Shown here: positions 24,982-48,178 of the stretch, in pieces
How positions within the stretch are numbered: position 1 is the stretch's first letter
Layout of the letters: every line of letters begins with the position of its first letter
NCBI GenBank assembly: GCA_963594595.1
Contig: CAVBFA010000002.1
Coordinates: 1-50,845 of the forward strand
Direction of reading: 5' to 3'
DNA: 50,845 nucleotides
DNA from: Oscillibacter sp.
Lineage (GTDB): Bacteria > Bacteroidota > Bacteroidia > Bacteroidales > Bacteroidaceae
Notes under the pieces: model-generated
What the model saw: the letters and a program-made list of their open reading frames with translations, nothing else
Databases searched by the model: none
Told to the model about the DNA's origin: nothing
Program-made: the position numbers and the translations under genes

Positions 24982-24986
24982 TCCGC

Positions 24987-30629: not shown

Positions 30630-30681
30630 GTTGCAAAGATAAATCACATGAGCATTACATATAATAAGGCAATCTTATAAT

Positions 30682-30845: not shown

Positions 30846-31703
30846 ATGACGAATAAAAGATTTCATAGGGACGAATATCCATTTGACATTCTCGGTGAGT
30901 TCGGACTCACTGAGAACATGATTTATGACCTCCCTGATTATGTTCACGAGAACATTGAGATGGGTGGAATGTCTCCATTATTGCCCATATCAATCAAGCA
31001 ACCGTTTGGTTGCACTCACTGCTACGCCAAGTTCTGCCTCATAGAAGTAGAAGATGGTATAGATGTGTTGTTTTCGCCAAAACTGAAGGAAGCAGACCTT
31101 TCAAATTTCTTGAAACAAGACCGACAGTTGCTTCTGGAAGGAAAGACCATCGTTTCAGAAGTGGAGAAAGCCGTCTTGTTGGATGATGGAACGGAAAACA
31201 AAAGAAGGGTAAAGGCATTTGTCCAATTGGATAAAGAGACAAACAGCGTAGTCTATGCCCCTACACAGATTATTGGCCGAAACCTACAGACAGTCACCAA
31301 TGAGTTTGATCTATCGGAGAGTGAGCTTCAAGGATTTTGGAAAGGCGAGCTGGTCACTACTGAAATGTCCGATGAGGACAAAGTTACAGCCAATATCACC
31401 ATAGGTATAGACCTCTTTTCAGAAAAGGGTGTGGTCTTAATTCCTGGTGGTGCAGCACAATGGAAACGAGTCGTTCATAAATCCATGCCTGAATACAATT
31501 TTGGCAATGATGGATGTTGGGTTAACAGACATGGAATGTTGGAGTATGTTCCAGAGGAGAATTTCACACAAGACATTTTGGAAGCTCTGGAAAGACAAGC
31601 GCGTCAATCTGGTATACCTAAGGAGAATCTTCAGAACATTTCTGTCGGACATTCCTTCCCAAATAGTGAAGCATACGATGATGCCCGACAAATCACAAGA
31701 TAA
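30846..31703 (+). CDS. DUF4099-like protein
   Basis: Start reassigned to MTNKRF (after the -7 element); EYPFDILGEFGLTENMI and AFVQLDKETN resemble segments of the DUF3945/DUF4099 gene at 49628-50659. Confidence 0.75.
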   Translation: MTNKRFHRDEYPFDILGEFGLTENMIYDLPDYVHENIEMGGMSPLLPISIKQPFGCTHCYAKFCLIEVEDGIDVLFSPKLKEADLSNFLKQDRQLLLEGKTIVSEVEKAVLLDDGTENKRRVKAFVQLDKETNSVVYAPTQIIGRNLQTVTNEFDLSESELQGFWKGELVTTEMSDEDKVTANITIGIDLFSEKGVVLIPGGAAQWKRVVHKSMPEYNFGNDGCWVNRHGMLEYVPEENFTQDILEALERQARQSGIPKENLQNISVGHSFPNSEAYDDARQITR

Positions 31704-31726
31704 ACCAATCATTAAATTAAAACAAA

Positions 31727-31942
31727 ATGCCAATGAATTATCCCGATTATGACACCCTGCGTGAAGAATACGAAGCAGGGAACATCACTGCTGTTGATTT
31801 CGTACTACAGCAATCAGATGAGGTAACAGAAGACTATCACCAGTTCTGCAAGGACGAGGGACTTTCACCAACCTCTGTAGAATCTGCAAAAGCCTTCATA
31901 GACTTTCGTGAAGAGCTTTTTGAAGAGAGTATCAGCAACTAA
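31727..31942 (+). CDS. Small acidic hypothetical protein
   Basis: 71 aa, operon-embedded, A-rich leader. Confidence 0.75.
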   Translation: MPMNYPDYDTLREEYEAGNITAVDFVLQQSDEVTEDYHQFCKDEGLSPTSVESAKAFIDFREELFEESISN

Positions 31943-31962
31943 TCACTTAAACAGAAGCGACT

Positions 31963-33600
31963 ATGAGCATCCGTTCAGAATCTATGCCTTATCGTGGAGA
32001 ACTCTCGTACCAGTTACAAGACCTTCTCCGCAGAAATGGTATGAAAGCCCAACTTGTCGTAGAGCAAGACCAATACAAGTTGTTGGTACAGGGGCATGAC
32101 TCTCCTTTGTTGGAATATCCCATCAACGAGAAGCAGTTCAAGGCTCTCGCTGACGGTGGTACCAACTATGCCAACAAGAATGCCTACAAGACGTTTAACA
32201 ACATCGTCGGAAGGGATTTCGATATGCCATCATCCTATGTGGCAGCAAGAAATGTCAACGGTCGTGTTGCCATGGGACTTCATGGTTATAGAGAAAGATT
32301 CTATGAACGCCATCCTAATATTCCGCCACACGCCTTTGGGAGGGATTTCTTAGGTTGGACACCGAGAATGCAGGAAGGTTTCCATTTGCGCAGAATGAGT
32401 GGCGTTGCCGTTTCACCGATGGTTGTAGAACATTCCGATGGACGTTTACGTCCGGGAGAACTCAAAAGTGGCAGTTATGGTTATTACTACAAAGGTGATA
32501 GCAAAAGTCAGAGCATGGATCCACTGAAAGATATGCAAGCCTACTTTCCTGCTGTTGTAACACGTCCAAGACCCCAAGAGCCAGCCAAGCCATACAAGGA
32601 GCTTATAACCTCAAATGTTTATTTCACCAATGAAAAGTGGCAAGAAGTGCTTTCGTCCCATGGTATCATTGTGGATGCCGACAAAAAGACACTGACTGTA
32701 CAATCCAATGGTACACAGCAGGATTTCGTTTATGACCTGACAGACAACGAAGTCAAGAAACTGACAGACAATTCGTTGAAGAGCACTCCACTCAACGAGC
32801 GTCTGAGCATCTTGAACAATGCCATCAGCGGAGACTTCAAAGACAAGGTAACGATGGATATGCTCAACAGTAAAGAGCGCATCTCTATCACATTGAAGCC
32901 AGAAGTGGAAGAGTCTTTCCGCAAACAACTTCAGGAAGATGTGCAAGTTGTCAGTGATCCGTTGGAAAATGAGCAGCATTTTGCACCGACACTAAATCCA
33001 GAACAAGGTTACGCAAATGGCAAGGACCTTGAAGCCATGAATGAGCGTAAAGGGTGGTATCGTGAAGGTAAACATGGCCGTGAAGTTGAAGTCGGTGATA
33101 TTTGGGTGGAAAAGGTTCCTTCAAAAGTTCAACAGGAAGCCAAGCAACCTCAAAAAGATCAAAAAGACGACGAGAAGTTCACCTACCGTATGAGCGCGGT
33201 CATCAATGGAGAAGTTATCACGCATGAAATCAGCAAGAAGCAATACGACAAGTTCATGGCCGTGGATGACTATCAACGCCAACGCATGATGTCAAAGATA
33301 TTCAATGAGGTTGACATGAAAACCAGACCGGAAATGCGTCAAGGGTTCAACTTGGGAGCATTCCTGGGTGCCGGACTTACAGCAATGAGTGAAGCAACCT
33401 ACCTTGGTGCAGACATCGCACACAATGTTGAGCATATCAAGCATCCCCATCCATCCCCGGAGATTCACCAAGAAGTTCATGGTAGTGGACGCATATATGT
33501 CAAGCCGGGAGTTGACTCACCACAGGATATTGCAGAAAGAGCTTTTGAAGCAGGGCTCAACGTCGGTGCGCACAGCCACGGTATGGGACATGGAAGATAA
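31963..33600 (+). CDS. Hypothetical protein with C-terminal GMGHGR tail
   Basis: 545-aa ORF in operon; no signal peptide. Confidence 0.85.
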   Translation: MSIRSESMPYRGELSYQLQDLLRRNGMKAQLVVEQDQYKLLVQGHDSPLLEYPINEKQFKALADGGTNYANKNAYKTFNNIVGRDFDMPSSYVAARNVNGRVAMGLHGYRERFYERHPNIPPHAFGRDFLGWTPRMQEGFHLRRMSGVAVSPMVVEHSDGRLRPGELKSGSYGYYYKGDSKSQSMDPLKDMQAYFPAVVTRPRPQEPAKPYKELITSNVYFTNEKWQEVLSSHGIIVDADKKTLTVQSNGTQQDFVYDLTDNEVKKLTDNSLKSTPLNERLSILNNAISGDFKDKVTMDMLNSKERISITLKPEVEESFRKQLQEDVQVVSDPLENEQHFAPTLNPEQGYANGKDLEAMNERKGWYREGKHGREVEVGDIWVEKVPSKVQQEAKQPQKDQKDDEKFTYRMSAVINGEVITHEISKKQYDKFMAVDDYQRQRMMSKIFNEVDMKTRPEMRQGFNLGAFLGAGLTAMSEATYLGADIAHNVEHIKHPHPSPEIHQEVHGSGRIYVKPGVDSPQDIAERAFEAGLNVGAHSHGMGHGR

Positions 33601-33620
33601 ACAACTTAAAATATAAAGCA

Positions 33621-33869
33621 ATGAGTAAAAAGAAAAAGAGAAAACAACAGTATAGCGTATCTCCAGAAGAGATTCGGCTTATTGAGAAAGACCTTGGAGT
33701 GGAATTTATCGATTTCTACAAGGGCATTTTCAAATCCAATGGTATTGTCTGGAAGCCGGTGAAAAACGGAATCGAACTCCTATGTGCAGCTTGGGATAAT
33801 GTTCCGATGTTACAAATCTCATCAGGACGTTCCGCATGCCAATTCGTTCCTTTGGAGTGGGAACCATAA
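33621..33869 (+). CDS. Small hypothetical protein
   Basis: 82-aa ORF filling the gap in the operon with an A-rich leader. Confidence 0.65.
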   Translation: MSKKKKRKQQYSVSPEEIRLIEKDLGVEFIDFYKGIFKSNGIVWKPVKNGIELLCAAWDNVPMLQISSGRSACQFVPLEWEP

Positions 33870-33897
33870 AATGCAGTCAAAGTAACTAACTATAATT

Positions 33898-35652
33898 TTG
33901 GCAGACCAATTATCATACGACGATTTCAAGGCACGGATTGACATTCAAGACGTGTTGAAGGACGCAGGCTATCACTTCTATCGATGTGATGGCTTGCGCT
34001 ATCCCTCATATGTACGTCTTGACAGCAATGGAGGCCGGGTCAGAGGAGACAAGTTCATTGTGACAGCAAACGGGAAATGCTGTTTCCAACCGCCACAGCA
34101 GAAAGTGTACAATGTCATTTCTTTTATCACGGAGCATCCAGATTTCTTTCAGGAATACCATGCCGGTATCAATCCGCATCATCTTGTAAATCTTGTCTGT
34201 AACCGTCTACTGAACAATCCAATAGAATACGATATGCGCAACATCATAGAACCCAGACATAACATCAAGCCTTTTGACATTAAGGATTACACAGTCCTAA
34301 AATTCAAAAAGCACGATATGGAGAACATCAAGAAGTTCTATCCATTCTTCAAGAGTCGCATGATAGATATTGCCACTCAAAAAGCCTTTGGCTCATCGTT
34401 CATGCTTGCCACAAGACAGGCTTCGGAACAGAAAGGACGGTATTTCAAAAATTTATCCTTCCCACTGTACATACCAGGGCAGACTGCCGTTGTCGGTTTT
34501 GAAGAAAGAAGCAAGCCACGTCTTGACGGCACAAGCGGCTACAAAGGAAAGGCTCTTGGCAGCAATTCGTCTGAAGGGCTATGGATAGCAAGTCCTAATG
34601 GTACGGAACTGAAAGATGCAAAAGATGTCCTGTGGTTTGAAAGTGCCTATGATGCAATGGCATATTACCAACTATGCGCACACAAGGACAAGTCGCTCGC
34701 TGATGCGGTTTTCCTCTCAACAGGCGGCAACCCAACCGTCCTGCAGTTCCGTGGAGTAATCAAAGAAGCTCAGAATGCCTGTCACCACTTATGTTTCGAC
34801 AATGACATGGCAGGAAAACAGTTCGTTTTGAATTTCAATACGGAGCTTAAACACGTCAAGGAAAGCATCCCCAAATATGGTGAAGACATGGTGGAATACA
34901 TGGGCTCGCTTATGGATAAAGACAACTTTCTGTCAGGTAATGAAGACTTTTTGCCTGATGATGTTGGCAAACTATATGGCAAGTATGAAACGGAAGCGGA
35001 GGAATACATGTCCATGAAATACAGTGGATTGTGTTATGAAGGCGATGTCAAAGACCAATTGGATAAAGCCAACCGCTTACATAAAGAGTATGTCAACAAG
35101 ATGAAAGAGAAGCTATGTATCGGAAGCGAACAGGGGCATCTCAAAGACCTTGGCACATACGACATCCCTGATTGGGCTATCTGCGCTATTGAAAATGGTG
35201 ACTATGAAGGATTGACAGAGGAAGAGGAAACACTTGTAACGGAGTTCCTTGAAAAGCATTTCCCTGAAGGTTATGTGTCAAATATAGACTTTGACAATTA
35301 TAACGAGCTCAATCTCTATCCTGCCTTTGGCACGAGAAACAGCAATGCTTTGGTCAGTCACGGAGAGTCACCATATGAAGCGGTAAAGACCTATTCCGTA
35401 CAGTTCTTCCATCCTACACAACGTGAAAGTTATGCCCTGCCAAACCTTACGGTTGTCCGTGAAGTCCCTGAAGACGGCAGCAAAGATTGGAATGACCAGC
35501 TAATCCGTCAAGAAACAGAACGGATTGTGCAAAAAAGTCAAGGCGGTGAAGACGATAGGACTGTAAGTGCAGGAATAGACCTTAACAGCGACGGTGAGAT
35601 TGAAATCAGCGAGAGTGATGAGAAGAAGCACCGTCACAATATAGGCAGATAA
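33898..35652 (+). CDS. Toprim-domain (TraP/DUF3991-like) primase-like protein
   Basis: WFESAYDAMAY, LSTGGNP, CFDND and KDWND motifs; acidic insertion before KDWND. Confidence 0.85.
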   Translation: MADQLSYDDFKARIDIQDVLKDAGYHFYRCDGLRYPSYVRLDSNGGRVRGDKFIVTANGKCCFQPPQQKVYNVISFITEHPDFFQEYHAGINPHHLVNLVCNRLLNNPIEYDMRNIIEPRHNIKPFDIKDYTVLKFKKHDMENIKKFYPFFKSRMIDIATQKAFGSSFMLATRQASEQKGRYFKNLSFPLYIPGQTAVVGFEERSKPRLDGTSGYKGKALGSNSSEGLWIASPNGTELKDAKDVLWFESAYDAMAYYQLCAHKDKSLADAVFLSTGGNPTVLQFRGVIKEAQNACHHLCFDNDMAGKQFVLNFNTELKHVKESIPKYGEDMVEYMGSLMDKDNFLSGNEDFLPDDVGKLYGKYETEAEEYMSMKYSGLCYEGDVKDQLDKANRLHKEYVNKMKEKLCIGSEQGHLKDLGTYDIPDWAICAIENGDYEGLTEEEETLVTEFLEKHFPEGYVSNIDFDNYNELNLYPAFGTRNSNALVSHGESPYEAVKTYSVQFFHPTQRESYALPNLTVVREVPEDGSKDWNDQLIRQETERIVQKSQGGEDDRTVSAGIDLNSDGEIEISESDEKKHRHNIGR

Positions 35653-35653
35653 T

Positions 35654-36145
35654 ATGAGCATATCATATCCATCCATAAGAATACATCCTTCAGTGATGCA
35701 GTTCTACACAGAAGAAGGAATGACCATTGCCAGTGTTATTGTCCTGGTAGCGTTGGCAGGTTATGACGGTCTCACTCCAAGGTGGATGCCACCTTATATA
35801 ATAGGTGTAGCCGTCATCTTAATCCTTTACTTGCTCTATCAGTATCTGTATGTGACTCGAACGGTATATGTAATCACATCGGAGCAGTTGAAATACGAGT
35901 GTGGAGTCTTCTCTTGTAGCAGGGATTTCATTGAATTGTACAGGGTCATAGATTACAGTGAGCAGCGTTCCTTCCTCCAGATGTTATTGGGTATTAAAAC
36001 AATCAGCATTTATAGCGGAGATAGAACCCACCCACGTCTTGACTTTGTAGGCATTAGCAATAAGGTGGACCTGATTCCCACGATACGAGAACGAGTTGAA
36101 TTAAACAAAAAGCGTCACAATATACATGAATTTACGAACACATAA
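35654..36145 (+). CDS. Membrane protein with bacterial PH (bPH_2) domain
   Basis: Two TM helices then YVITSEQL...GVFS...IELYRV...LQMLLGIKTI. Confidence 0.82.
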   Translation: MSISYPSIRIHPSVMQFYTEEGMTIASVIVLVALAGYDGLTPRWMPPYIIGVAVILILYLLYQYLYVTRTVYVITSEQLKYECGVFSCSRDFIELYRVIDYSEQRSFLQMLLGIKTISIYSGDRTHPRLDFVGISNKVDLIPTIRERVELNKKRHNIHEFTNT

Positions 36146-36905
36146 AACATTCCGCAAATTGGAAAATCGTTTGTTTCCCTTTGGTAAAGATGATGCCAAC
36201 GGCAAATGGCTCATTGTGTCTGTTGTCGCATTGATACTGCTGTTGATAACAAGCAGTCGAACATATGGGCAGGTTGTAACCTCGAACCCTGGCGAATACA
36301 CAATCCTCGCTACTGGCAACAATCTCATTAACGGAACCGTCAAGTCGGAAACCCAAGCACAGCGTAATACTGCACTGGCGCAAAATGTGATGGCAGGAGA
36401 ATTTACCAAGATGAAACAATGGGAGAAAGATTATAACAGTTATCTGAAAACTGCCACAAACTATGCTTCCGCATTAAAGGCTGCTACGCACATCTATGAT
36501 GATGGCGTGCGCATATTGCTGACACTTGGAAAACTAAGAAAAGCTGTCAACAACAACCCACAAGGTATAGCCGCTACTGTAAGCATGAAAAATCTCTATA
36601 TGGAAACAACTACAGAAATGCTGTCGGTGTTCACATTGTTAAAGGATGCCATTGCCAAAGGCGGATCAACCAATATGCTCACTGGAGCCGAACGTTCCAA
36701 AACCTTATGGGAACTGGAAGACAAACTGTTCTCATTTTCACATAAGTTGCATTTGTTGTATATCAGTATACGTCATTACCAGATGAGTGATGTCTGGAAC
36801 CGAGCTACAGCAGGAATGATTGAAAGGGACAAGCATGAAGTGGCATTGCAGTCATTGTCACATTGGAAGCGTTATGCCAAAGAAGTTTCACTGTATTCAA
36901 AGTAG
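36126..36905 (+). CDS. Secreted helical protein (VirB5-like by inference)
   Basis: Hydrophobic leader ending TYGQ; W/Y-x-K-x-Y-N-S-Y-L-K block shared with next ORF. Confidence 0.75.
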   Translation: MNLRTHKTFRKLENRLFPFGKDDANGKWLIVSVVALILLLITSSRTYGQVVTSNPGEYTILATGNNLINGTVKSETQAQRNTALAQNVMAGEFTKMKQWEKDYNSYLKTATNYASALKAATHIYDDGVRILLTLGKLRKAVNNNPQGIAATVSMKNLYMETTTEMLSVFTLLKDAIAKGGSTNMLTGAERSKTLWELEDKLFSFSHKLHLLYISIRHYQMSDVWNRATAGMIERDKHEVALQSLSHWKRYAKEVSLYSK

Positions 36906-36908
36906 CGT

Positions 36909-37604
36909 ATGAAGACCATTGTATTACCCATATTACTTGGCTTACTCGTATGGATGAATCCTACAAGAAGCTATGCACAGATGGATCCTGTCTTGACCGG
37001 TATGATTATAGACTACACCAACAAGGCAAAGTCGCAATACAACTCACAGTTGAAAACTATGGCAACAGAAACCGAGGGACATGTATGGCTGAAGCAGGAA
37101 GTGGAGAGTACAGCCAACTATCAGAAACAGTTTGACAACTATCTGAAATCCTTCCGTAGCATCATCTCATACGCTGCGCAAACCTACGGTTTCTATTATG
37201 AGATCAATCATCTGTGTGAGAACATGAACAAGTTGTCTGCACAGATTGGCAATGCGCCGACAAATGCCGTGGCCGTAGCCTTGCACAACAAGCGTAACGA
37301 CATTTATGTCAGCATCATAAACAAGAGCGTCGGCATCGTCAATACAATCCGTCAGGTGTGTATCAACAATAAGATGACCGAGAAGCAACGCATAGAACTG
37401 GTATTCTCTATCCGTCCTCAGCTAAAGGACATGAACTATCAGTTAGCAACATTGACAAAACTTGTCAGATGCACGAATATGGGACTTGTGTGGCACAACA
37501 TTGAATATGGCTCCTTGCCACATAGAACTGGTAAGGCAGGAATTATAGAAGACTGTCTGAGTGTGTGGAGAGTAAATGCAAAGAGTGTAAAACCTAAAAA
37601 ATAG
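36909..37604 (+). CDS. Secreted helical protein (VirB5/DUF4141-like by inference)
   Basis: Signal peptide ending SYAQ-MDP; YQKQFDNYLK and KMTEKQRIE motifs. Confidence 0.75.
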   Translation: MKTIVLPILLGLLVWMNPTRSYAQMDPVLTGMIIDYTNKAKSQYNSQLKTMATETEGHVWLKQEVESTANYQKQFDNYLKSFRSIISYAAQTYGFYYEINHLCENMNKLSAQIGNAPTNAVAVALHNKRNDIYVSIINKSVGIVNTIRQVCINNKMTEKQRIELVFSIRPQLKDMNYQLATLTKLVRCTNMGLVWHNIEYGSLPHRTGKAGIIEDCLSVWRVNAKSVKPKK

Positions 37605-37610
37605 AAAGAT

Positions 37611-38288
37611 ATGGGTTGGTTATCATTAGCTACAAGGGTTATACCCAAACTATGGAGAAGTGGAGTTAAAGTAACGTCCACGCTATGGAAAGGCGGCAGT
37701 TCCGTTGTTGGCGCTGTCGCAAAAAATCCGAAAACCACAGCAGTTGCAAGTGTGGCAACTTTCGCAGGATGGCAGAAACTTTCGCATCCAGACGAGTCCA
37801 TTGGTACAGCTGTAGGTAAAACGCTCCGTGGTGGAACAGACGGAACTGGAGACTTTGCGCACGATGTCGTAAACGGCTATACAGGTGAAAACACGGTAGA
37901 GCAAGTAAAGGACACCACAAACAAGGTCATTTCAGAAATTAAGGACACCGCAGCGGAAACAAAAGGATTGCTGGGAACTTTTGGGGACACATTGAAAGGC
38001 ATCAGCTCTTTCATCGGCAACATGTTTGGAGGCAACGGAACCAATATGTTTGGTAATTTCTTCAACAATCTTGCTTCGGGGAAAATCTCCGGTTGGGGAA
38101 TAGGTGCTTTGATAGCTGCTGCCTATATGGTATTTGGTCGGACTGGACTACTGGGAAAAGTCGGTGGCGCATTGATGGCCATGATGATGATAGGCAACAA
38201 CTCACAACGGCAGACACAGACAGTTGCCCAAGCCGAAAATCAAGAGATGATGCAAGATGAACAGCAACAACGCAACAGGCATCGGTAA
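37611..38288 (+). CDS. Gly-rich membrane-insertion-like protein
   Basis: Gly-zipper-like hydrophobic hairpin near C-terminus; Gln-rich tail ending RNRHR. Confidence 0.82.
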   Translation: MGWLSLATRVIPKLWRSGVKVTSTLWKGGSSVVGAVAKNPKTTAVASVATFAGWQKLSHPDESIGTAVGKTLRGGTDGTGDFAHDVVNGYTGENTVEQVKDTTNKVISEIKDTAAETKGLLGTFGDTLKGISSFIGNMFGGNGTNMFGNFFNNLASGKISGWGIGALIAAAYMVFGRTGLLGKVGGALMAMMMIGNNSQRQTQTVAQAENQEMMQDEQQQRNRHR

Positions 38289-38316
38289 TATCAGTAACAT
38301 CAATAATACGAATAAT

Positions 38317-38805
38317 ATGAGAAAGACATTAACAGTATTTGGAGCAAGCCTGTTTGCAAGTCAGGCATTTGCAGACAGCATTACAGATGGCATTGGAACT
38401 GCAGGTGATGCCATTAATAGCTATACGCCGTATGTTCAAGCATTGGGTTATGTCCTTGCAAGCATCATAGGCATAGTGGCAGCGTTTGTCATCTATTATG
38501 CCATTGCCAACAATGACAGAAATGTAAAGAAGCGCATTCTCACATGGGGAGGAGGTTGTGTAGCCATGTTGTGTATGACGATTGCCCTTCCTAAGTTCTT
38601 CGACTATCAGGAGTCGGGCTTGCTTGCAGGAAACACGAACTCTTCGGGAGGTTCCTCTGGTGACTTTGCAGGTGGAGACCGTTGGGGAAAAATAGACATA
38701 ACCATTCCCGACATCAACAATCCGATCTGGCGGCCAGACCATAGGTTTGACCCAATCTTAAGACCAGGCACAGGTATCGTCAAGCCGGACATAAAGCTCA
38801 ACTAA
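38317..38805 (+). CDS. DUF4134/TraE-like pilin paralog with C-terminal extension
   Basis: Start reassigned to MRKTLT; YTPYVQALGYVLASIIGIVAAF...NNDRNVKKRI...ALPKFF aligns with 11811-12203. Confidence 0.8.
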   Translation: MRKTLTVFGASLFASQAFADSITDGIGTAGDAINSYTPYVQALGYVLASIIGIVAAFVIYYAIANNDRNVKKRILTWGGGCVAMLCMTIALPKFFDYQESGLLAGNTNSSGGSSGDFAGGDRWGKIDITIPDINNPIWRPDHRFDPILRPGTGIVKPDIKLN

Positions 38806-38821
38806 ACAAATAAGCAAAGAC

Positions 38822-39682
38822 ATGGAATACAAACAATCTATGAATCTTGTTTCTCCAAGCGGTTACGCCATGCCATTTGAGTTGTCAGAAACGACACCTT
38901 TGGAGATAACGCTCGGCTATGGTAAACAGACACACCCTGTGACTGGCAAGGAGTTCTTTCACCATGGAGTAGACTTCAAGGTCTATCCCCACACATGGCT
39001 CAAAGCTCTTGCCACAGGTGTAGTATCTGGAATAGCCAGTGACCGTGAAAAAGGATTCAACATAACAGTTAACTATCGCAATTATGCAGCAGGAAACTCC
39101 GCTGTCTATGATGTGGTCTATTCACATATCAAGGAATCCATTTGCAATTTTGGCAAAAGCGTAAATGCTGGTGACAACATTGCTGTGTGTGATGACACCC
39201 TTCACATTGAAGTTCGTTTCAATGGTGATGAAATAGACCCGATTGAGTTTCTTACGATGGTGAGGGACAATCTTATAGTTTATGAGCAGAAGACCATTCA
39301 AGGGAACAATCCTGAAATTGCTACTTTAGACTTCAAAGTGGAAACTCCATACGATAGCCAGCAACCAGAGATTGACCAAATGTATCAGAGGTTCTTCGGC
39401 AAGTACATGATAGACTTGCTGACAAGCAGATACAAGGTACCCAACGGAACGGAGCAAGTCCTACGTGATGTCTTGGCAGAGGGTGCAAGTAGTGGAGCTT
39501 ATTATGAACACACACCGAGTATGCTCAACCCATTGGGTTTGGGAGAGCGTAGCTTGGGTATCATAGGACGCATACAGACAATCTTGACACATGACTTTCT
39601 CAACTACCTTGCTCTGATGCATGGAGTGTTCCTCTCCACAATGACCGAGTACGAAAAAAAAAAGCTACTTACAACGCCATAG
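38822..39682 (+). CDS. M23 peptidase-like protein (no signal peptide), short form of a frameshifted gene
   Basis: FHHGVDF and YSHI present; DTLHIE lacks the first His of HxH; A10 run at 39654-39663. Confidence 0.85.
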   Translation: MEYKQSMNLVSPSGYAMPFELSETTPLEITLGYGKQTHPVTGKEFFHHGVDFKVYPHTWLKALATGVVSGIASDREKGFNITVNYRNYAAGNSAVYDVVYSHIKESICNFGKSVNAGDNIAVCDDTLHIEVRFNGDEIDPIEFLTMVRDNLIVYEQKTIQGNNPEIATLDFKVETPYDSQQPEIDQMYQRFFGKYMIDLLTSRYKVPNGTEQVLRDVLAEGASSGAYYEHTPSMLNPLGLGERSLGIIGRIQTILTHDFLNYLALMHGVFLSTMTEYEKKKLLTTP

Positions 39683-39996
39683 CAAGCCAAGGGATAATAG
39701 ACCCTTTCGAGAATTTCGACATAGACATTCAGAGCTTCGACATACAGCGTACCGTCAGCGTCTATCCCGACAAGGACGGCATCGTGTGGTGGACAAAGGC
39801 TTGGTTCAATGGCAAGAAGAAAGGTGAACGAGCCATAGAAATCAATCGCCAGTTAGCCATTAAGTTCATACAGGACAATGTGGCAAAGGACGAGTGGTTG
39901 GAAGAGTTTTTCCCTCGTCAGATGGAAGTCCTCCATGCAGCCCTTGCCCAAACAAGAGAACAGGTAATCAATCAGTTAAGACAGTCATTCATATAA
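39664..39996 (+). CDS. -1 frame extension of the M23-like gene (110 aa)
   Basis: Frame open from 39595 to TAA 39994-39996 with no ATG/GTG/TTG until 39784; begins at A-AAA-AAG; stop is 2 nt before next ATG. Confidence 0.7.
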   Translation, partial: ATYNAIASQGIIDPFENFDIDIQSFDIQRTVSVYPDKDGIVWWTKAWFNGKKKGERAIEINRQLAIKFIQDNVAKDEWLEEFFPRQMEVLHAALAQTREQVINQLRQSFI

Positions 39997-39998
39997 TC

Positions 39999-41654
39999 AT
40001 GGCAACAGCAAATAGCGACAAGCAAGACATCTTCACATCCAAAGTCATCCCCATCATGAAGAAAGTTCGTGATGACCTAAGCCGTAAACAGATGGAGGAA
40101 TATGGAAGATATAGTTCTTCATTGGGAGCTGTTTTGGCGGGGGCAGCAGGGCCAGATGGTGGCATGACTGCCACAGCGACCTATTATAACAACCTAAAAT
40201 ACATTGGCGAGTGGAATAGTAAGACGGTAGATGACTATATCAACATGGTAAAGGCTGAACTAAAAAGACAGCACATAACCGTTGATGCTGTGATGGAGAA
40301 AAAGATGATAGACTACCTTGTCAAGCAGCAAATGCCAAAGTCAAGTGCAGACTACATACTCCGTAAAGCGGCAGAAGGAAGTATCTTCTATATTCCTGAA
40401 AGGGTCAGAACGACCTCATTGCAAGACCATATAAATAAGAAAGCTGAAGAAAAGTACAACCCTTCTCTTCTTGAAGAAGTGGCAGGAAACATCGGCTCAT
40501 GGCTTATCAATGCTGCTACCACATGGGGTGCTGGCGGTTTCTTCGGACAGTTGGCTATGGATGGTGGTACGGAAGTGGTTGAACGCACGTCCCAAGGCCA
40601 ACAAAAAAAGTATGTAGAACAACAGAAACAACAGGCAAAGAAGGAGGTAGCAGCTGCAAGCAAGAAGAAAGCCAGTGTCCCTAAATGGATGCTTGATCAG
40701 ATGGGATTCAAAAGTTGTGCTTATGCCACAGACAAACAGTTGAGCATTGCTTTGGACTGGGCAAACAAGAATGGTCAGAGATATAGGAATAAGGTCAATC
40801 AAGCCGTCAATGCTGGGGAACGAACGGTGAAAGCAAACGGCAAATCCACCATGATGTCCGTTTCTGATGCCACTTTTCGTGCTATGGAATACGAGACATT
40901 CGCCAAAGTAATACAGAAAGAACTCGTAGGCCGCAAAAATGGTAAAGATGCAGTGCATTATTCCAATATAGCGGAAGCTGAAGAGTCTACGGCTTACATG
41001 AAAAATGCCGATGAAGCAGAGGCCGCGCAAGCAACAATGCCGGGTGCTTCTACTGGAGAATACGCAGGATGGGACAACTTGATTGGTTCCGTGGAAATGG
41101 GTGGCATGGGGGACACTATGCAACATCTGGGAATCACACTGTCCATGCTGCCAGACATGTTAGTCGGCGTGTTTACGGGAAAGACAAGGTCTATAGGGCT
41201 GAACAAGGAAACAATGATTCCTTTGGCGGCCCTTGTCAGTGGAACATTCATCAGTAATCCTTTGATGAAGATACCGCTCATGTTGTATGGTGGTGCCAGT
41301 CTGTTCAATACTGTTGGTCAAGAGGCTCTTGCCGAGTATCGGAAAGAGAATGGCGAGCAACCGGTCTCTCGCTATAAGCGGTATGCAGATGAAGAGCTTG
41401 ACAAACGACTGAAGAACCCACAGATAGAAGGTAACGTGTTACTTGTTGACATGGATAACGTTCCTCGTCTTGTCACTTTGCCGCAATCCGTTATCGAAGC
41501 ATACAATGAGGGAGCCTTGACTGTGAACACGATAGCCAATCGTATACTATCAAAGGCGGATCAGTCAACCATGTCTAACAGACAAGGCATGCACAATGTT
41601 TCTGAACGCTATGAGCAGACGCAGGATAGAGAGCAAGTCCGAGGAATACGCTAA
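39999..41654 (+). CDS. Hypothetical Ala/Gly-rich helical protein with hydrophobic segments
   Basis: Start reassigned to MATANS; 551 aa; ends QDREQVRGIR. Confidence 0.85.
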   Translation: MATANSDKQDIFTSKVIPIMKKVRDDLSRKQMEEYGRYSSSLGAVLAGAAGPDGGMTATATYYNNLKYIGEWNSKTVDDYINMVKAELKRQHITVDAVMEKKMIDYLVKQQMPKSSADYILRKAAEGSIFYIPERVRTTSLQDHINKKAEEKYNPSLLEEVAGNIGSWLINAATTWGAGGFFGQLAMDGGTEVVERTSQGQQKKYVEQQKQQAKKEVAAASKKKASVPKWMLDQMGFKSCAYATDKQLSIALDWANKNGQRYRNKVNQAVNAGERTVKANGKSTMMSVSDATFRAMEYETFAKVIQKELVGRKNGKDAVHYSNIAEAEESTAYMKNADEAEAAQATMPGASTGEYAGWDNLIGSVEMGGMGDTMQHLGITLSMLPDMLVGVFTGKTRSIGLNKETMIPLAALVSGTFISNPLMKIPLMLYGGASLFNTVGQEALAEYRKENGEQPVSRYKRYADEELDKRLKNPQIEGNVLLVDMDNVPRLVTLPQSVIEAYNEGALTVNTIANRILSKADQSTMSNRQGMHNVSERYEQTQDREQVRGIR

Positions 41655-41697
41655 GAACAAGAAATAATAATGATAAAAGAACAAATGATACGATAAT

Positions 41698-43713
41698 ATG
41701 GCAGAAGAAAACATCAACAAAAAAACAGGTGCAGAGCGACAAGCGGAAGTCTTGGTTGCAACCCTTGAAAGAGCTAACAAGAATGGAGGTACCTTGCTTA
41801 ATGCAGGGCAAAAGGCGATGCCTCAGTTCTATGACAAGACATTACGGATTACCCCCGTCAATGCCCTCGTTATGGCAATGCATAGTGATAGCGGTGAGTT
41901 CAAGACCAACAGCTACACCATGTTCAATGAGACCCATGACCGCAACGAAGCCGTGAAGAAAGGTCAAAAAGGAGTTCCTTTCGTTTGGCAGAACCTCAAC
42001 CAGTACGTCAACAAAGACAATGCGGAGGATAAAATCAGCCGTGCAGAATACAATTCTCTCGCAGATGCAGAAAAAGCAAAATACAAGGTTAATCCTCGTG
42101 AGGATGTGTATACGGTCTTCAACATCGACCAAACCACCATGTCCCATGTTCATAAGGAAGAATACGCCAAGCAGGTGGAGCAGTTTGGATCAAACAGATC
42201 GACAGATGAAAAGCTCCTTCGAATGGATGTCAACAAATTCATCCAGAGTATGAAGGACAATCTCGTCCCTATCCGCAAGGATGCCACTGGTATTGCACAT
42301 TATGATAGCAAAAAAGACACATTACACATCCCTGCTCAGAAGGATTTTCCTTCGTATGCAGACTATGTGCAAGAGGTAACCCGGCAGATTGTTCATGCGA
42401 CTGGAGTTCCACAACGCTTGGGACGAGAAGGACTTTCCGTCGATGGCGTAAAGACACCGTCAGAAGTACAGCAACATATGGAAATGCTTGTGGAAGAGCT
42501 TGCGTCTGCACACAGAATGCTTGAATTGGGCATGACAGCGAAGATGCGTCCGCAGACCGTTGAACAGTTACCGAATATCATTTCCGAACTGAAAGCGGAT
42601 CCGACGATGGCGCAAAAGGTTCTCCATGACGTGAATCGCACAGTTGGGATGATAAAGAAGGCTGAGAATGGAGAAAAGATCAAACTCATCGAGAAGCCTT
42701 CTGAAAAACGCCAACAGGCATGGGCTTCACAATTTCCTATAGACAAGGTTCCATCAACCTTTACACAGATCTCAATGCTGAAGGACGATGAAGGCAAGTG
42801 GACACTTGCTGCAAAGCCTGAGAATGCCCGTACTTTTGCTGTTCATCCCAGTCGTGAGGATGTCAGCCTGTATTTTGACATGATGAAGAATGACCATGAT
42901 GAAACTCATGTGAATGAATTCAAAACCCAGTTCGCTCAGAAATACTACTCAGTAGTGGCAGCTAATCCCGAAAAGGAAGCCAACATCTTTAGAAGCAATG
43001 CCTCACAAGATGCGTTAGACCTTATCAGCAAGGTCAATGCCTTTAAGACAAAGGACAACAAAATTCTGCTTGTTGCCACCATCGGTGATGAGAAGCAGAA
43101 GTCCGTGCAGATAAGCCAGTCGCAATGGCAAAGAATGTGGCTTGCTGATGACAAGCAGGACTACAAGACACACCTCGCAGCCATTCTGTATTCTGATGTC
43201 CTTGCAGGAAAACTAGAGGAGATGAAGCGTTCTGTCTCTCCTGACGTGGAGGGAACTCAGCTTCATGAGGAGAATGAGCACCGTGAATACCACGAGGAGG
43301 AGAAACGGCAGCAACAGCAGATGTCGAATGTACCCCCGATTATCAAGCAATACAATGATTTGAAGCAAAAGCATCCAGATGCATTATTACTTTTCCGTTG
43401 TGGCGATTTCTATGAAACCTACAAGGAAGACGCGGTAAAGGCCTCCAATATCTTAGGTATCACGCTCACAAAGCACAGCAAGCGTATGGATGAGGAAGGA
43501 AAGCCGTTAAAGATGGCCGGTTTTCCATATCATGCCCTCGATACTTACCTTCCCAAGCTTATCAGAGCAGGAGAACGAGTTGCCATTTGTGACCAGTTGG
43601 AATCTCCAAGACAGAAAACCTCACAGCAGGAGGAAAACAAGCCAGAAGCCAAGCAAGAGGTTAAGGAAGTTGTCTCCGCTCAGAAAGAGGAGCGCCATGG
43701 TATGCACAGATAA
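41698..43713 (+). CDS. ArdC-N + degenerate zincin metallopeptidase + MutS domain-I polyvalent protein
   Basis: [34 protein letters not shown] instead of HExx[26 protein letters not shown]...AGFP...RVAICDQLE. Confidence 0.88.
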
Positions 43714-43724
43714 AGCAGTATGAT

Positions 43725-45299
43725 ATGACATCATCAAGACAACAATACATAGAACGGTATGCAGAGTATGCTATGGAGCAGATGCGGCGATATGGCATAC
43801 CTGCATCCATAACTCTTGCCCAGGGCATCATCGAGTCTGCCGATGGCAAAAGTACACTGGCAAACACTGCCAACAATCATTTCGGCGTAAAGGGAGCATA
43901 TAATGGAAACTATGTCCTTGCTGACGATGACAAACCAAATGAGAAGTTCAAGAAGTATGACAATGTTGGGCAAAGCTATGAAGACCATTCCAAGGTGCTC
44001 ATGGCACAGCGATACCAGCGATATGTCAGAAATCTGTCTCCCGATAACTATAAAGGTTGGGCTGCAGGTATCAAGAAGGGCGGTTATGCGTCTGCAAGTA
44101 ACTATGTGTCTACAGTGGTCAACGTCATCGAAGGTGCAAAGCTCCAACGTTTTGACAAAATGGTGATACAACAGATGAATGCCGAAAGAAAGCAATTCGG
44201 TGTTCAGTCCAACCCATTGTCAAACAATGAAGGTACAAAAGCCAAAGCTACTGGAATGAATTTGCCACAATCAAGTTACAGTATGCCGGTACAGCGCAGG
44301 GAGTTCATGCTCATTACTTCACCTTACGGTCAACGCGAAGATCCTATAAACAAAGGCAAAACGCAGATACACCACGGCATAGACATCAAGACCAATAAGG
44401 ACAATGTCCTTGCCACAGAAAACAATGGCGTGGTTGTCGGTGTCGATCATCGAACTACAACTGGTGGCGGTAAAACCGTTACGGTGGAGTATGCTCGTGA
44501 AGACGGAACTAAAACAAGAGTGCAATACATGCATCTTAGTGAAATATCCGTCAAGAAAGGCGATACGGTCAATGCTGGTCAGAAGTTAGGCGTTTCGGGT
44601 AATACCGGCACACGAACCACTAGTGAGCATCTTCATTTTGGTGTCATTAACGTCTCGGCTGACAATAAGTTGCAATGGGTCAATCCAGCTGCCTACCTTG
44701 CAGAAATCAGTCAAAAGGGCAATCTCAATATCGAGGCACGACATAACGGAAAGGACATACTTGCCGAATACATGACTGCCGGAACGAAAGCTGTAAACAC
44801 CGACGAGCAAACACCAGAAAACTGGATGAGTAAACTCCTCGGCTCTGAAGATGCAGCCCTCGGCATTGAAGGTGGAGGTGACAAAGGTCTCTTGGGAAAC
44901 CTAATGCAAATGTTCATGACATTGCTTATGCTTACCATCCAAATGGAGAACAAAAGTAAGGAAGAAAAGATGCAAGCGGTCAGTGATGCTGTTATCAATC
45001 GGCATATTGACATCAGCAGCTTTGTCCCCAACCTGAAGTCTGCTGTATTGAGCATCAATGACAAAGGAAATGCGGTTCTTGTCGTTAATGATGGCAAGAA
45101 GGAATACTCCCATGAATTGACCAATGCAGAGAAGAACAGTATCTCCAACATTCTTCAAAGCGACAGTGGCGATACCACAAAGCGACAAAGGATTGGCTGC
45201 ATTGTCAATGCCATAACATTCTCTTATCAGGCATCCAACAATTATGAGCAGATTGAAGCACAGCAACAATCCCAGCAACAGACCATTCAAAGAAGATAA
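43725..45299 (+). CDS. GH73 glucosaminidase + M23 peptidase fusion, no signal peptide
   Basis: GIPASITLAQGIIES, NNHFGVK, GGYA; HHGIDI, YMHL, EHLHF; Gln-rich tail ending IQRR. Confidence 0.9.
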   Translation: MTSSRQQYIERYAEYAMEQMRRYGIPASITLAQGIIESADGKSTLANTANNHFGVKGAYNGNYVLADDDKPNEKFKKYDNVGQSYEDHSKVLMAQRYQRYVRNLSPDNYKGWAAGIKKGGYASASNYVSTVVNVIEGAKLQRFDKMVIQQMNAERKQFGVQSNPLSNNEGTKAKATGMNLPQSSYSMPVQRREFMLITSPYGQREDPINKGKTQIHHGIDIKTNKDNVLATENNGVVVGVDHRTTTGGGKTVTVEYAREDGTKTRVQYMHLSEISVKKGDTVNAGQKLGVSGNTGTRTTSEHLHFGVINVSADNKLQWVNPAAYLAEISQKGNLNIEARHNGKDILAEYMTAGTKAVNTDEQTPENWMSKLLGSEDAALGIEGGGDKGLLGNLMQMFMTLLMLTIQMENKSKEEKMQAVSDAVINRHIDISSFVPNLKSAVLSINDKGNAVLVVNDGKKEYSHELTNAEKNSISNILQSDSGDTTKRQRIGCIVNAITFSYQASNNYEQIEAQQQSQQQTIQRR

Positions 45300-45320
45300 T
45301 AACAATCAAACTTACAAGAT

Positions 45321-45950
45321 ATGATTAAAGCAGAAACAAATGTCATAGGTACGATAAAGCGCAGCGCAAATATTCGTACAGACAAGAACAACAATCCGTA
45401 TTTGTCATTTGTCATGACAGTCGTTTTAACGGATGCTAAGACAACAAGTAAAAGCATCGATGTGTTTGTCTCGCTTCCAAACGCCAAGCAGGACGAGGCG
45501 CAGTCCTATGTTGAAGGACTGCGTGTGGCTGTAAACGGCAATTTGGACATCCGCAAGAAAGAAGACATTTTGAATTTCTATCTGACAGGCAACACCATAA
45601 CTGCCCAGAATGTGGCTGAACTTGACTCTATTTCAGGTACACTCTCATTCCGTGGCTATCTGAAGAAAGAGAATATCTATCAGCAGAAGACAGACAAGAA
45701 CGGTCATCCGTTCATCGTGTTCTCTGCCTATTCCTTGGAAAAGAACGGACAGGAGTATCTGAGCACATGGGTTAATTTCATGCGCTTCCCAGAAAAAGGC
45801 GCAGCAGTTGAGAGCATCATTCCTGATTGGATGCACTCTAAGGCACATGTGGACATAACCGGTGAATTGCAGGTTTCAGCCTACAATGACGTGGTAAGAC
45901 TTTCTTGTCGTGTGCATGACATGACCGAATACATCAACACCCAACAGTAA
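45321..45950 (+). CDS. Tandem OB-fold SSB-like protein
   Basis: Two repeats (RTDKNNNPYLSF...VAVNGNL / KTDKNGHPFIVF...VDITGEL) with SSB-like strand pattern. Confidence 0.7.
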   Translation: MIKAETNVIGTIKRSANIRTDKNNNPYLSFVMTVVLTDAKTTSKSIDVFVSLPNAKQDEAQSYVEGLRVAVNGNLDIRKKEDILNFYLTGNTITAQNVAELDSISGTLSFRGYLKKENIYQQKTDKNGHPFIVFSAYSLEKNGQEYLSTWVNFMRFPEKGAAVESIIPDWMHSKAHVDITGELQVSAYNDVVRLSCRVHDMTEYINTQQ

Positions 45951-45960
45951 AGCAGAGCGT

Positions 45961-47214
45961 ATGAAAAAGAATACATACAATACCGATGGGCTTAGTGCGG
46001 AAGACCGCGCTTTGAACACCTTTGCGGAACTTATGATTGAAAAGATCCGCAACTTGCAGGAAGACTGGAAGAAGCCTTGGTTTTCACCGCAAGTAGCCCA
46101 ACTGCCCAAAAACCTCAATGGTCGGAACTACAATGGCATGAACAGCATTGTTCTGATGCTCATGCAGGAAAAGAATGGATGGCAGACTTCTCGTTATGCC
46201 ACCTTTGACCGCATTGTAAGTCTGAACTTCACAAAAGATAAAGATGGCAAGAAGGCAGCAGTAGACGAGAACGGCAACAAACTCCCTCGTGTTGGCATCA
46301 ATAAAGGAGAAAAGAGCACCCCGGTTATGCTGACCACATTCACATGTGTACATAAAGAAACAAAAGAGCACATCAAGTACGACGATTATAAGCAGCTCAC
46401 TCAAGACGAGAGGAATAACTACAATGTCTACCCAAAGTTACAGGTTTATAACGTCTTCAATCTCGACCAGACCAATCTCAAAGAAGCACGTCCAGAGATG
46501 TATCAAAAGTTCAAGGATGAAGCCGTTGGGCAAAGTCTGCGCACCACAGATGGTATGGTTGATTTCCCTGCTTTGGATGCCATGATAGAGAAAGACCTCT
46601 ATGTATGTCCCATAAAGCCCATTCATGGGGACAATGCCTATTATAGCATCAGTAAAGACGAGATAGTCATTCCTGAAAAGGCACAGTTCATAGATGGTGA
46701 GTCCTTCTACAGTAATCTCTTACATGAGATGAGCCATGCCTCAGGTTCAGAAAACCGCTTGAATCGATTGGTTTCTGGCTCCACCTTTGGAAGTGAGTCA
46801 TACGCAAAGGAAGAACTTGTCGCAGAGCTTACAGCCGCACTTGTCTCTTCACAGTACGGCATGGAGAAGCATGTAAAAAGCGACAGCGCCGCTTACTTGA
46901 AGTCTTGGCTTGACAGTCTGAAGGAAGACCCCAATTTCATCAAGACTTCTCTAATGGATGTCAAGCGTTCTTCCTCATTCATCAGTCAGAGGCTTGATGC
47001 TGTGGCGCAGCGTCTTGAACGAGACGGTTGGGAGGCTGATTTCTCGGACATCCGTGAAAAGAACAAGGCTTTCACTCCTGTTTTTGGTAACAAGGCTGAG
47101 AGACCGACTGCGTCAAATCAAGAAAATCAGTCTACACAAGAGCAAACCAAACCCCAAGTCCAACATGAGGAGGTAGCAGCAAGAAGCACCGAACAGCCCC
47201 GATTTCATCGTTAA
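45961..47214 (+). CDS. ardC: ArdC-family antirestriction / ssDNA-binding protein with zincin metallopeptidase domain
   Basis: WKKPW, PKNLNGRNYNGMN, INKGEKS, YNVFNLDQT, LLHEMSH, YAKEELVAE, SAAYLKSWL. Confidence 0.9.
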   Translation: MKKNTYNTDGLSAEDRALNTFAELMIEKIRNLQEDWKKPWFSPQVAQLPKNLNGRNYNGMNSIVLMLMQEKNGWQTSRYATFDRIVSLNFTKDKDGKKAAVDENGNKLPRVGINKGEKSTPVMLTTFTCVHKETKEHIKYDDYKQLTQDERNNYNVYPKLQVYNVFNLDQTNLKEARPEMYQKFKDEAVGQSLRTTDGMVDFPALDAMIEKDLYVCPIKPIHGDNAYYSISKDEIVIPEKAQFIDGESFYSNLLHEMSHASGSENRLNRLVSGSTFGSESYAKEELVAELTAALVSSQYGMEKHVKSDSAAYLKSWLDSLKEDPNFIKTSLMDVKRSSSFISQRLDAVAQRLERDGWEADFSDIREKNKAFTPVFGNKAERPTASNQENQSTQEQTKPQVQHEEVAARSTEQPRFHR

Positions 47215-47242
47215 AATATATGAGCCGAACCCTAAATTAGAA

Positions 47243-48178
47243 GTGTTGTTCACAATATCAGAAGAAGAAGGAGCAGAGATGTATCTTGGAAATACACCAA
47301 TAGAAGTTGATTTGAGTACAGCGATATATATGTTACAGCAGAAAGACAATATGCCAGAAGGGATGGCTTGGGGTAACTATTTCCCTGCTGTTATCAATCA
47401 TACCAGTTCTGTCATAGCACGCAAACATCCTGATTTCCATGCAGCAAAACATGGAGATTATGATGCAGCGTTACGCTTGGTCAACGACTTGGTTAAGGAT
47501 GACAAAGTTGGCTATATTGCAAGATGCTATCCCAACGCCCATATAGCTTATAATCACAAGATGCAAGACAGTAAGGTCAATATGATACCGGCTGCTTACG
47601 CTGCAAAATTCTTGGCAATAGGGATGGATGTAGAACATAATATCATTGCGGTCACAGACGTCTCCCATACCAATGCTTCTGACATATCAAGGATTAGCAA
47701 ACGTGTACGTTTTGAAGGTGAGGTCAAGAAAGGGGTAGACTATATCCTCTTGGATGATTTTATTACATCGGGTGCCGAACTTCGGGATATGAGGGACTAC
47801 ATACAAAGCAAGGGTGGTAATGTGGTGATGATGACCACATTCGGACATGGCAGTTTCGGCAAACTCAAAGATATAAGAATAGACAACAGCCTTATCGAAA
47901 GACTAAAGGCATCGGGTATTACAGACCAAGATTTAAGAAAATATGGAATTGCATCAGAAATCAGGTGTCTTACCATCGGAGAAGCGGCAAAACTCTCCAG
48001 AATGGTTAACGCCAAAGCAAAAACAACAGTTGCACAACTCTGCGCAAGAGTTCAACGAACACACCAAGAATGCCCCAATCTGCCAGCAATGGAGACAGAA
48101 GTTCCAAGAAATGGGGTTCAAGGTGTCAAAACTAAAGAGATAACAGAAGAAAGTAAAACAATCAAATTCAAATTATGA
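47243..48178 (+). CDS. Type I phosphoribosyltransferase-fold protein
   Basis: PRPP-binding loop YILLDDFITSGAEL; AAKHGDYDAA and NMIP motifs; exact start uncertain. Confidence 0.8.
   Translation: MLFTISEEEGAEMYLGNTPIEVDLSTAIYMLQQKDNMPEGMAWGNYFPAVINHTSSVIARKHPDFHAAKHGDYDAALRLVNDLVKDDKVGYIARCYPNAHIAYNHKMQDSKVNMIPAAYAAKFLAIGMDVEHNIIAVTDVSHTNASDISRISKRVRFEGEVKKGVDYILLDDFITSGAELRDMRDYIQSKGGNVVMMTTFGHGSFGKLKDIRIDNSLIERLKASGITDQDLRKYGIASEIRCLTIGEAAKLSRMVNAKAKTTVAQLCARVQRTHQECPNLPAMETEVPRNGVQGVKTKEITEESKTIKFKL

Follow-up and report, generated by a model that had tools for sequence, protein, structure and literature searches.

Introduction

Several types of signal direct proteins into type IV secretion systems (T4SSs), including those described for the Agrobacterium VirB/D4 system and the BID-plus-tail arrangement of Bartonella (PMC10025392, PMC8740702); VirF ends in Arg-Gly-Leu (PMC8740702). 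In the T4SS effectors of Xanthomonas (X-Tfes) the XVIPCD tail is composed of Q, A, E and R up to position −8 and of Arg, hydrophobic or small residues, with no acids, at −6 to −1; removing its six final residues blocks transfer and lowers killing to 5%, with VirD4 binding unaffected (PMC8740702). For conjugative elements, polyvalent proteins were described by Iyer et al. in 2017, who proposed their transfer with the DNA and argued for accretion from solo domains, not de-fusion (PMC5512222). The locus compared with these systems here is the operon at 30846–49443 of a 50,845-nucleotide stretch of DNA (the window), contig CAVBFA010000002.1 of assembly GCA_963594595.1 (Oscillibacter sp.; Bacteroidaceae in the GTDB lineage). 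On its gene content (a primase, ParA, a Bacteroidales T4SS operon and the 30846–49443 operon) the window comprises the greater part of a Bacteroidales conjugative element, a kind of mobile DNA that is common among gut members of the order. Genes are named by their first position and lie on the + strand unless stated otherwise.

An initial annotation, made from the sequence alone, had read proteins of this operon as T4SS-delivered cargo marked by a shared C-terminal tail. The tail is interpreted here, at a probability of about 0.65, as a translocation signal that would be read by the element's own T4SS, eight or nine substrates being exported in mating, mostly into the recipient. It is most likely a known kind of T4SS signal that is new for Bacteroidales as far as our searches reach; neither the tail nor protein substrates of Bacteroidales integrative and conjugative elements (ICEs) were found described in the literature searched, which did not cover supplements, and those of Iyer et al. 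may list these operons.

The C-terminal tail

All nine C-termini quoted in the initial annotation were present at the genes named, and the signal-peptide proteins 36126, 36909, 38317 and 48175 lack the tail in the window, as it had stated. Eight of the 16 operon genes encode a terminal Arg, a residue that ends only 7.9% of the 2162 tails from the host (p = 1e-5, binomial test). A homolog search with 31963 gave 78 loci, nearly all in Bacteroidales records, and the sample was enlarged by 60 regions from 30 of the genomes behind these loci. Hits aligning only short of the family core were dropped (0–8 per family), and dereplication at 70% tail identity left 182 tails in nine families; counts are descriptive only, since related sequences are not independent. 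In the family-weighted profile E/Q are enriched 2–7 times from −20 to −7, and the final positions favour G/R (−4), M/F/R/I (−3), R/H/G (−2) and R (−1, 71%); an E/Q-rich linker is thus followed by an acid-free G/R-hydrophobic-R/H-R tip. Unweighted, 133 of the 182 tails end in Arg, against 33 of 295 polar host tails. No D or E occurs in the last five residues of 173/182 tails (host, 1130/2162), and Lys is depleted in the last six (0.28 versus 0.82 in polar host tails). The commonest ends among distant representatives are RGL, RGV, RGI and RGR. As in signals of the VirB/D4 type, the Arg-containing, acid-free C-terminus sits on an apparently unstructured tail, the final residues being of low confidence in both of the AlphaFold2 (AF2) models.

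Parts of the earlier description had to be narrowed. The description of the tails as rich in Gln and Glu does not hold for 31963, in which Q+E (0.11) is at the host level (0.10) and the tip is composed of Gly, His and Arg. The positive charge ascribed to the C-termini holds for the last six residues (+1 to +3), but over the last 25 the net charge is close to zero (−3 to +3), and the family means (−2.5 to +2.2; relaxase, +8.1) give no general positive charge. Most proteins without a signal peptide carry the tail; four that had gone unmentioned, 33621, 35654 (bPH_2, membrane), 38822 (M23-like) and 45321 (SSB-like), do not. With each family left out of training, the window copy of 47243, whose tail had been called weaker, lies at the 84th host percentile and that of 30846 at the 91st.

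A position model was trained on eight families and scored on the ninth against the 2162 host tails. The area under the curve (AUC) was 0.90–1.00 for the nine families and 0.39–0.82 for seven control families; against the 295 polar host tails the ranges were 0.79–1.00 and 0.16–0.62. No tail exceeded the host 99th percentile in the M23-like (0/15), SSB-like (0/19), bPH_2 (0/12) and OmpA (0/18) controls. For the signal-peptide families 36126 and 36909, in whose homologs an Arg near the end is frequent, the counts were 0/19 (AUC 0.82) and 2/17 (AUC 0.69), respectively. The full model passes one of 81 tails from 12 families of tra proteins; the tail is nearly absent from the T4SS machine proteins and from Sec-exported proteins. 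In the genome itself 42 of 2324 open reading frames (ORFs) pass, among them eight orthologs on the window contig, eight on contig C7 and one on contig C232, which are not independent of training.

Conservation of the tail in homologs, on which the initial annotation had staked its reading, was found, and the reading is not refuted on that count. In each of the nine families conservation is higher over the final four positions than over −11 to −25; the same contrast occurs in two of six control families, by at most 0.06, and two more lie within 0.02. In 20/20 ArdC homologs the tip stays terminal after 52–379 variable inserted residues, as it does in most Toprim homologs. Distant representatives were also found via an internal module, not the tail; after 11 of 150 had been left out (fewer than 25 residues after the module), 96 of the remaining 139 lie above the host 99th percentile, a few overlapping the training set, and many of those that do not pass look like fragments. 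On megaplasmid pE2-28, where the gene order is shuffled, six of eight orthologous copies (dispersed, 26–42% identical) keep the tail, and five other ORFs pass among about 160. In a P. distasonis record 8/8 pass, but these are close to the training loci. The comparisons support a conserved, position-locked protein feature common to non-homologous families.

Comparison with described signals and substrates

The operon tail fits the published X-Tfe tail closely. Common to both are a Q/E-rich linker to about −8, an acid-free tip of Arg, hydrophobic or small residues and variable length, and peptidoglycan hydrolases without a signal peptide occur in both sets (PMC8740702). A rule modelled on the two-zone XVIPCD tail passes 98/182 candidate tails and 57/2162 host tails. 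The operon differs in that His is common in the tip, that it belongs to an element which transfers DNA and encodes anti-restriction and primase proteins, and that no secreted immunity gene adjoins the hydrolase 43725, whose neighbours are 41698 and 45321. No XVIPCD, a folded alpha-alpha-beta-beta-beta domain, was found before the tail by Pfam, and the models of 31963 and 39999, the two proteins modelled, have beta-beta-beta-alpha-alpha modules that gave no significant PDB match.

With VirF and the Bartonella effectors the tail shares an Arg-dependent extreme C-terminus, RGL ends being found among relatives (PMC10025392, PMC8740702), and relatives of 31963 contain as many as four copies of a small internal module, comparable to the repeated BID of Beps (PMC10025392). 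Here, however, the last 25 residues are about neutral, the target would be bacterial, and the module is supported in two families only and gave no fold match. The combination of ArdC-N, MPTase and MutS-I in 41698 is a polyvalent architecture already noted in Bacteroidetes (PMC5512222); the passages of that paper on polyvalent proteins name no secretion signal, and five of the nine tailed families here are not polyvalent. Primase- or ArdC-type proteins are moved by conjugation systems in the case of RP4 TraC, IncI Sog and the pED208 substrates (PMC7213743, PMC11288057, PMC8406263). Signals are diverse in those systems, whereas here one motif marks a whole operon, probably on the lagging side, including putative envelope-acting proteins.

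The tailed proteins

The ArdC homolog (45961..47214) matches the R388 ArdC structure (E = 1e-22), with both ArdC-N and MPTase; the alignment runs to residue 343 of the 417 in 45961 and to residue 286 of the 297 in R388 ArdC, and about 75 extra C-terminal residues end in the tail. The motif HEMSH is present, and 20/20 tails lie above the host 99th percentile, the threshold used for all families below. The polyvalent protein 41698..43713 consists of ArdC-N, an MPTase domain without HExxH (absent throughout the family alignment), a shared module, MutS-I and the tail (Pfam; 21/21). The Toprim primase-like protein 33898..35652 (Pfam Toprim_2 and DUF6926) keeps the tail after 64–284 variable residues (27/34). 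The PRTase-like protein 47243..48178 rests on a weak match (E = 0.002), and its tail, weak in the window, is clear in some homologs (3/6). The DUF4099/DUF3945-like protein 30846..31703 (hhalign to the DUF3945 protein of the window, P = 96%; the RefSeq ortholog is DUF4099) has a weak-to-moderate tail (AUC 0.97; 12/24).

The domain assignments made initially were thus recovered for ArdcN, MPTase-PolyVal, MutS_I and Toprim_2, and only weakly for PRTase. Two or more conflict domains beside T4SS genes, the mark of a polyvalent protein, were found in 41698 (ArdC-N, MPTase, MutS-I) and 45961 (ArdC-N, MPTase), but not in 30846, 31963, 37611 or 39999. The proposed description of the operon as a 'de-fused polyvalent toolkit' suits 33898, 41698, 45961 and 47243 and not the other tailed proteins, and 41698 is itself fused. 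The non-polyvalent tailed set comprises the peptidoglycan hydrolase, the DUF4099/DUF3945 relative and three proteins with hydrophobic helices; it thereby includes a probable envelope-acting half of the cargo that had been missed. Relatives fuse DNA-side domains (ART, LPD1, helicase, PRTase, DUF6926) into chains of 1500–3200 residues, which also end in the tail. One polyvalent protein of 3234 residues on pE2-28 (L146:522-10226), likewise ending in the tail, contains methylase, SNF2 helicase, PRTase, nucleotidyltransferase, DUF6926 and MutS-I domains.

The peptidoglycan hydrolase (43725..45299; glucosaminidase plus M23 in Pfam) has no signal peptide, an extra C-terminal domain and a Gln-rich tail (13/14). 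Its catalytic residues are kept in the family: Glu in 24/27 (three gaps), HxxxD in 24/27 and the two His of HxH in 24 and 23 of 27. The strongest tail belongs to 37611..38288, a Gly-rich amphipathic protein with a conserved hydrophobic hairpin at about 158–196 and no signal peptide. All 22 of its dereplicated tails end in Arg, 21/22 lie above the threshold and Arg223, although the linker before it diverges, is the same in all 23 sequences aligned. Family searches with 37611 found none (a weak tape-measure match, E = 0.004), a PDB sequence search with 37611 and 47243 gave no match below E = 0.05, and the ESM Atlas returned only unnamed Bacteroidota clusters for 39999 and 37611.

Two further tailed proteins belong to no known family. 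In 39999..41654 (helical, three conserved uncharged segments; AF2 pLDDT 67; tail AUC 0.98, 12/23) a beta-beta-beta-alpha-alpha module stands at the end of the model. The AF2 model of 31963..33600 (pLDDT 64, pTM 0.31) has three such modules, besides a conserved uncharged helix at 468–486 and the Gly/His/Arg tip (AUC 0.98, 9/18). Fold searches with 39999 gave no PDB match at Z >= 8 (best VIA Z 7.3) and those with 31963 none at Z >= 5 (best VIA Z 4.4), neither gave a Foldseek match at E <= 0.001, and these results exclude no fold. Conserved uncharged hydrophobic segments are present in 37611, 39999, 31963 and 43725. Module 3 of 31963 is related to residues 453–503 of 41698 (hhalign, P = 83%). One folded module common to all proteins before the tail was rejected: the relation is supported for 31963 and 41698 only (43725, P = 28%; 39999, P = 0.5%), and iteration added no family.

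Relaxase and transfer polarity

Neither a relaxase nor an integrase was found in the window, nor elsewhere in the assembly at high identity; the sole relaxase in the assembly is the copy on contig C7 (42% identical). A sibling element that is 94–99% identical encodes a MobV relaxase and an integrase on the far side of a BREX insertion. The insertion (L083:2181-12667) carries brxA, brxB, brxC and pglX together with a ThsA-like gene between operon and relaxase. A check of the relaxase for the same tail, suggested initially, gave a partial match in MobV homologs, with the basic tip (a Lys/Arg cluster; tip-only AUC 0.86) and not the E/Q block (linker-only AUC 0.29; both against polar host tails).

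Upstream of mobV in 30 loci a conserved inverted repeat flanks a short hairpin, which is likely the origin of transfer (oriT). In 25/26 loci the cargo operon is downstream of mobV, the two being convergent. Relaxases typically mark the lagging, late-transferred side, according to a text in whose relevant passages MOBV does not appear (PMC11541004), and the operon would be on that side. Early expression from the incoming DNA would then be unlikely because of this position, and anti-restriction and primase genes that arrive last would make more sense if their proteins travel, which favours protein delivery.

A YspA/SLOG gene occurs downstream of OmpA on the relaxase side at L089:14764-15222 and L090:10429-10890; the L090 copy has a high tail score and is a candidate for a further substrate. 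A Zn-ribbon/Toprim primase of what appears to be another element type (L111:17277-18248) has a basic-hydrophobic tip, and further ICE families in Bacteroidales may share the signal.

Proposed function and alternative explanations

On the preferred reading, that of a translocation signal for the element's T4SS, the donor would synthesise the substrates and export them in mating together with the DNA, the tail being recognised by the coupling protein or TraG. The DNA-side proteins (ArdC, the polyvalent ArdC-N/MutS-I protein, the Toprim primase and PRTase) would shield and prime the incoming strand, and the hydrolase and the hydrophobic-helix proteins would work on the envelope where the mating cells join. 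Export of 43725 is favoured because this enzyme lacks a signal peptide and, being an intact peptidoglycan hydrolase, finds no substrate in the cytoplasm. We infer that the coupling protein or TraG recognises the tail, that the proteins are exported and where they go; the two-zone tail, its conservation, terminal position and distribution and the domain content are observed.

Several observations weigh against this reading. Transfer of the proteins and their binding by the T4SS are predictions. The relaxase, as the one sure substrate, does poorly under the full model (2/11 tails above the host 99th percentile, AUC 0.86) and shows no E/Q block; the assembly yielded no relaxase of this element and the polarity relative to oriT is itself deduced. 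The XVIPCD-like rule is unspecific, passing 7/19 and 9/17 tails of two signal-peptide families besides the candidates, and 10/11 relaxases. No common folded recognition domain was detected beyond two families, and one Toprim ortholog on pE2-28 has no tail. R388 ArdC works from the recipient, not the donor (PMC7213743), although it lacks the operon tail. The SSB-like 45321 has no tail, although SSB is among the proteins moved by an F system (PMC8406263), and F-system substrates carry diverse, often internal signals (PMC11288057).

Export might instead end on the donor side, in the periplasm, the pilus or the surface, with the proteins serving to build the machine or as parts of the junction. 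The operon does also encode a pilin, two pilus-like secreted proteins and OmpA, and the hydrolase and hydrophobic proteins could serve assembly; this is nevertheless improbable, given that a signal-peptide M23 protein and a signal-peptide glucosaminidase are already there for donor wall work, that ArdC, primase, MutS-I and PRTase domains have no periplasmic role and that the core tra proteins are without the tail. Equally doubtful is an intracellular docking or turnover motif for an element-encoded hub such as a chaperone, a protease or a relaxosome part. A conserved free C-terminus would suit any C-terminus-binding partner and both relaxase and SSB miss the full pattern, but neither a cytoplasmic peptidoglycan hydrolase with intact catalytic residues nor the close fit to tested T4SS tails would be explained. 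An antibacterial effector set like the X-Tfes, in which a wall hydrolase and pore-forming proteins would kill neighbouring cells, is less probable again. The layout of hydrolase, C-terminal domain and Gln-rich tail is that of an X-Tfe, and 37611 and 39999 have hydrophobic helices; against this, neither gene flanking 43725 is a signal-peptide immunity gene, half the proteins handle DNA, and the cargo gene set and its order are fixed, not variable, across 25–50% identity.

An artefactual origin of the pattern, through disordered ends, codon bias or translational coupling, is very improbable and largely refuted already. The families were chosen by their tails and the terminal Arg codons are mostly AGA/CGA (100/133), but host terminal Arg codons are equally biased (76% of 175), and the signal holds against polar host tails and on dispersed genes; a DNA motif as the explanation was rejected. 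An extension of the preferred reading is a payload with two destinations, as in phage ejection proteins and type III secretion translocators, which are sent ahead to form an entry path: 43725, 37611, 39999 and 31963 would go ahead to open the recipient wall and build a membrane entry path, the rest would protect and prime the cytoplasmic DNA, and a slippage-controlled dead M23 paralog would tune or restrain the hydrolase. This we regard as speculative and rather unlikely.

Bacteroidales conjugative elements spread genes widely in gut communities, and a scoreable tail gives a list of candidate substrates and a short tag. Should the hydrolase and the membrane-type proteins reach the envelope of the recipient, the passage of DNA across the recipient wall and membranes becomes directly testable; the two-destination payload, if true, would name long-sought recipient-side parts of the conjugation channel. 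Anti-restriction genes on the late-transferred side would show an alternative to early expression from the leading region.

The M23-like gene and its A-run

The gene 38822..39682 encodes a degenerate M23 protein (Pfam) without signal peptide or tail, apparently the short form of a frameshifted gene; the first His of HxH is lost in 16/16 family members. Just before its stop lies a conserved A10 run (39654..39663), a putative slippage site, followed by a conserved extension of 111 residues in the −1 frame (39661..39996) with no conserved start codon, no tail and no Pfam match. Among 40 distinct homologs the run is A9–10 in 39 and A8 in one; the extension (105–113 residues across homologs) is open in the −1 frame in 38/40 and in the +1 frame in the two homologs that are one A short. 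An A9 within 75 nt of a stop occurs in 3/2324 ORFs of the genome, two of which are copies of the M23-like gene. In one ortholog RefSeq treats the extension as a separate 93-residue gene. As a hidden carrier of the tail the extension was rejected, its tail score being below 2 in all 38.

In the type VI secretion gene tssM, a poly-A run before a premature stop gives short and long forms by transcriptional slippage (PMC4256274). The present site resembles it: a conserved run of A9 or longer closely precedes a premature stop in a gene of a secretion system, and the shifted frame is conserved too. It differs in belonging to an M23-like gene of a T4SS element, with a run (A9–10) conserved in 40 homologs, and in that its short and long products are predicted. 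The sole metatranscriptome contig over the site, from another strain and available as contigs only, has an extra A that places the extension in frame, and this A is absent from three other runs and from the 40 genomic copies. There is accordingly a hint of tssM-like transcriptional slippage; in-phase A-AAA-AAN heptamers at the site also permit ribosomal shifting. No slippage in Bacteroidales conjugative elements was found described in the literature searched.

The element and neighbouring genes

The window is the complete contig C2 of a 3.47 Mb assembly of 290 contigs (completeness 91%). The presumed export machine is the T4SS operon (11388..27173; DUF4134 pilins, TraG ATPase, TraJ-like, TraK, TraM and TraN), whose last gene encodes the coupling protein (24987-27173); VirB4-like TraG, TraK/M/N and the coupling protein, which together mark a conjugative element, are all present in the window. 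The coupling protein lies upstream of the cargo operon in 10/15 other elements examined, and a search for its homologs gave nothing but 99–100% identical copies among the matches listed. Within the genome, the operon recurs in diverged form on contig C7, and a portion of a third copy lies on C232; contigs C7, C232, C31, C170, C219 and C238 are parts of at least two further elements of the same family. In an order-wide sample 43725 was matched at E <= 1e-60 in one of 300 other genomes, and the element is therefore patchy. A sigma-70 promoter scan gave no excess (43 versus 37.7 in shuffles); metatranscriptome run X1 covers 29/30 bins, which is not proof of transcription.

The untailed genes of the operon comprise an 82-residue ORF of no family (33621..33869), the bPH_2 membrane protein used as a control (35654..36145; Pfam; AUC 0.53), the paralogous signal-peptide helical proteins 36126 and 36909 (36126..37604; hhalign P = 99% mutual), the DUF4134 pilin-like protein (38317..38805; Pfam; 0/6 by the rule), the SSB-like control (45321..45950; Pfam SSB, E = 7e-4; 0/19) and the OmpA-family signal-peptide control (48175..49443; Pfam; 0/18). 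36126 and 36909 are possibly pilus-associated; 36909 is related to the C-terminus of the tra-region protein 15346 (hhalign, P = 71%). On the − strand at 29186..30647 lie genes for an M23 protein and a glucosaminidase with signal peptides and without tails (0/33 and 0/8), which by their predicted signal peptides are the Sec-route counterparts of 43725.

The tra-operon protein at 15346-17964 is a signal-peptide coiled-coil protein of 872 residues and no family, with a C-terminus resembling 36909. A Septu-like PtuA/PtuB defence pair lies at 2153-4481 (−). Between the tra and cargo operons, at 27305-28915 (−), a DUF4411 gene is paired with an IrrE/ImmA-type metallopeptidase gene, and a like pair adjoins the operon copy on C7. 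A DUF4099-DUF3945-Toprim_Crpt gene at 49628-50707 (−) is apparently cut short; the sequence is AT-rich near 49640, and the end of the gene there looks like a junction to another element.

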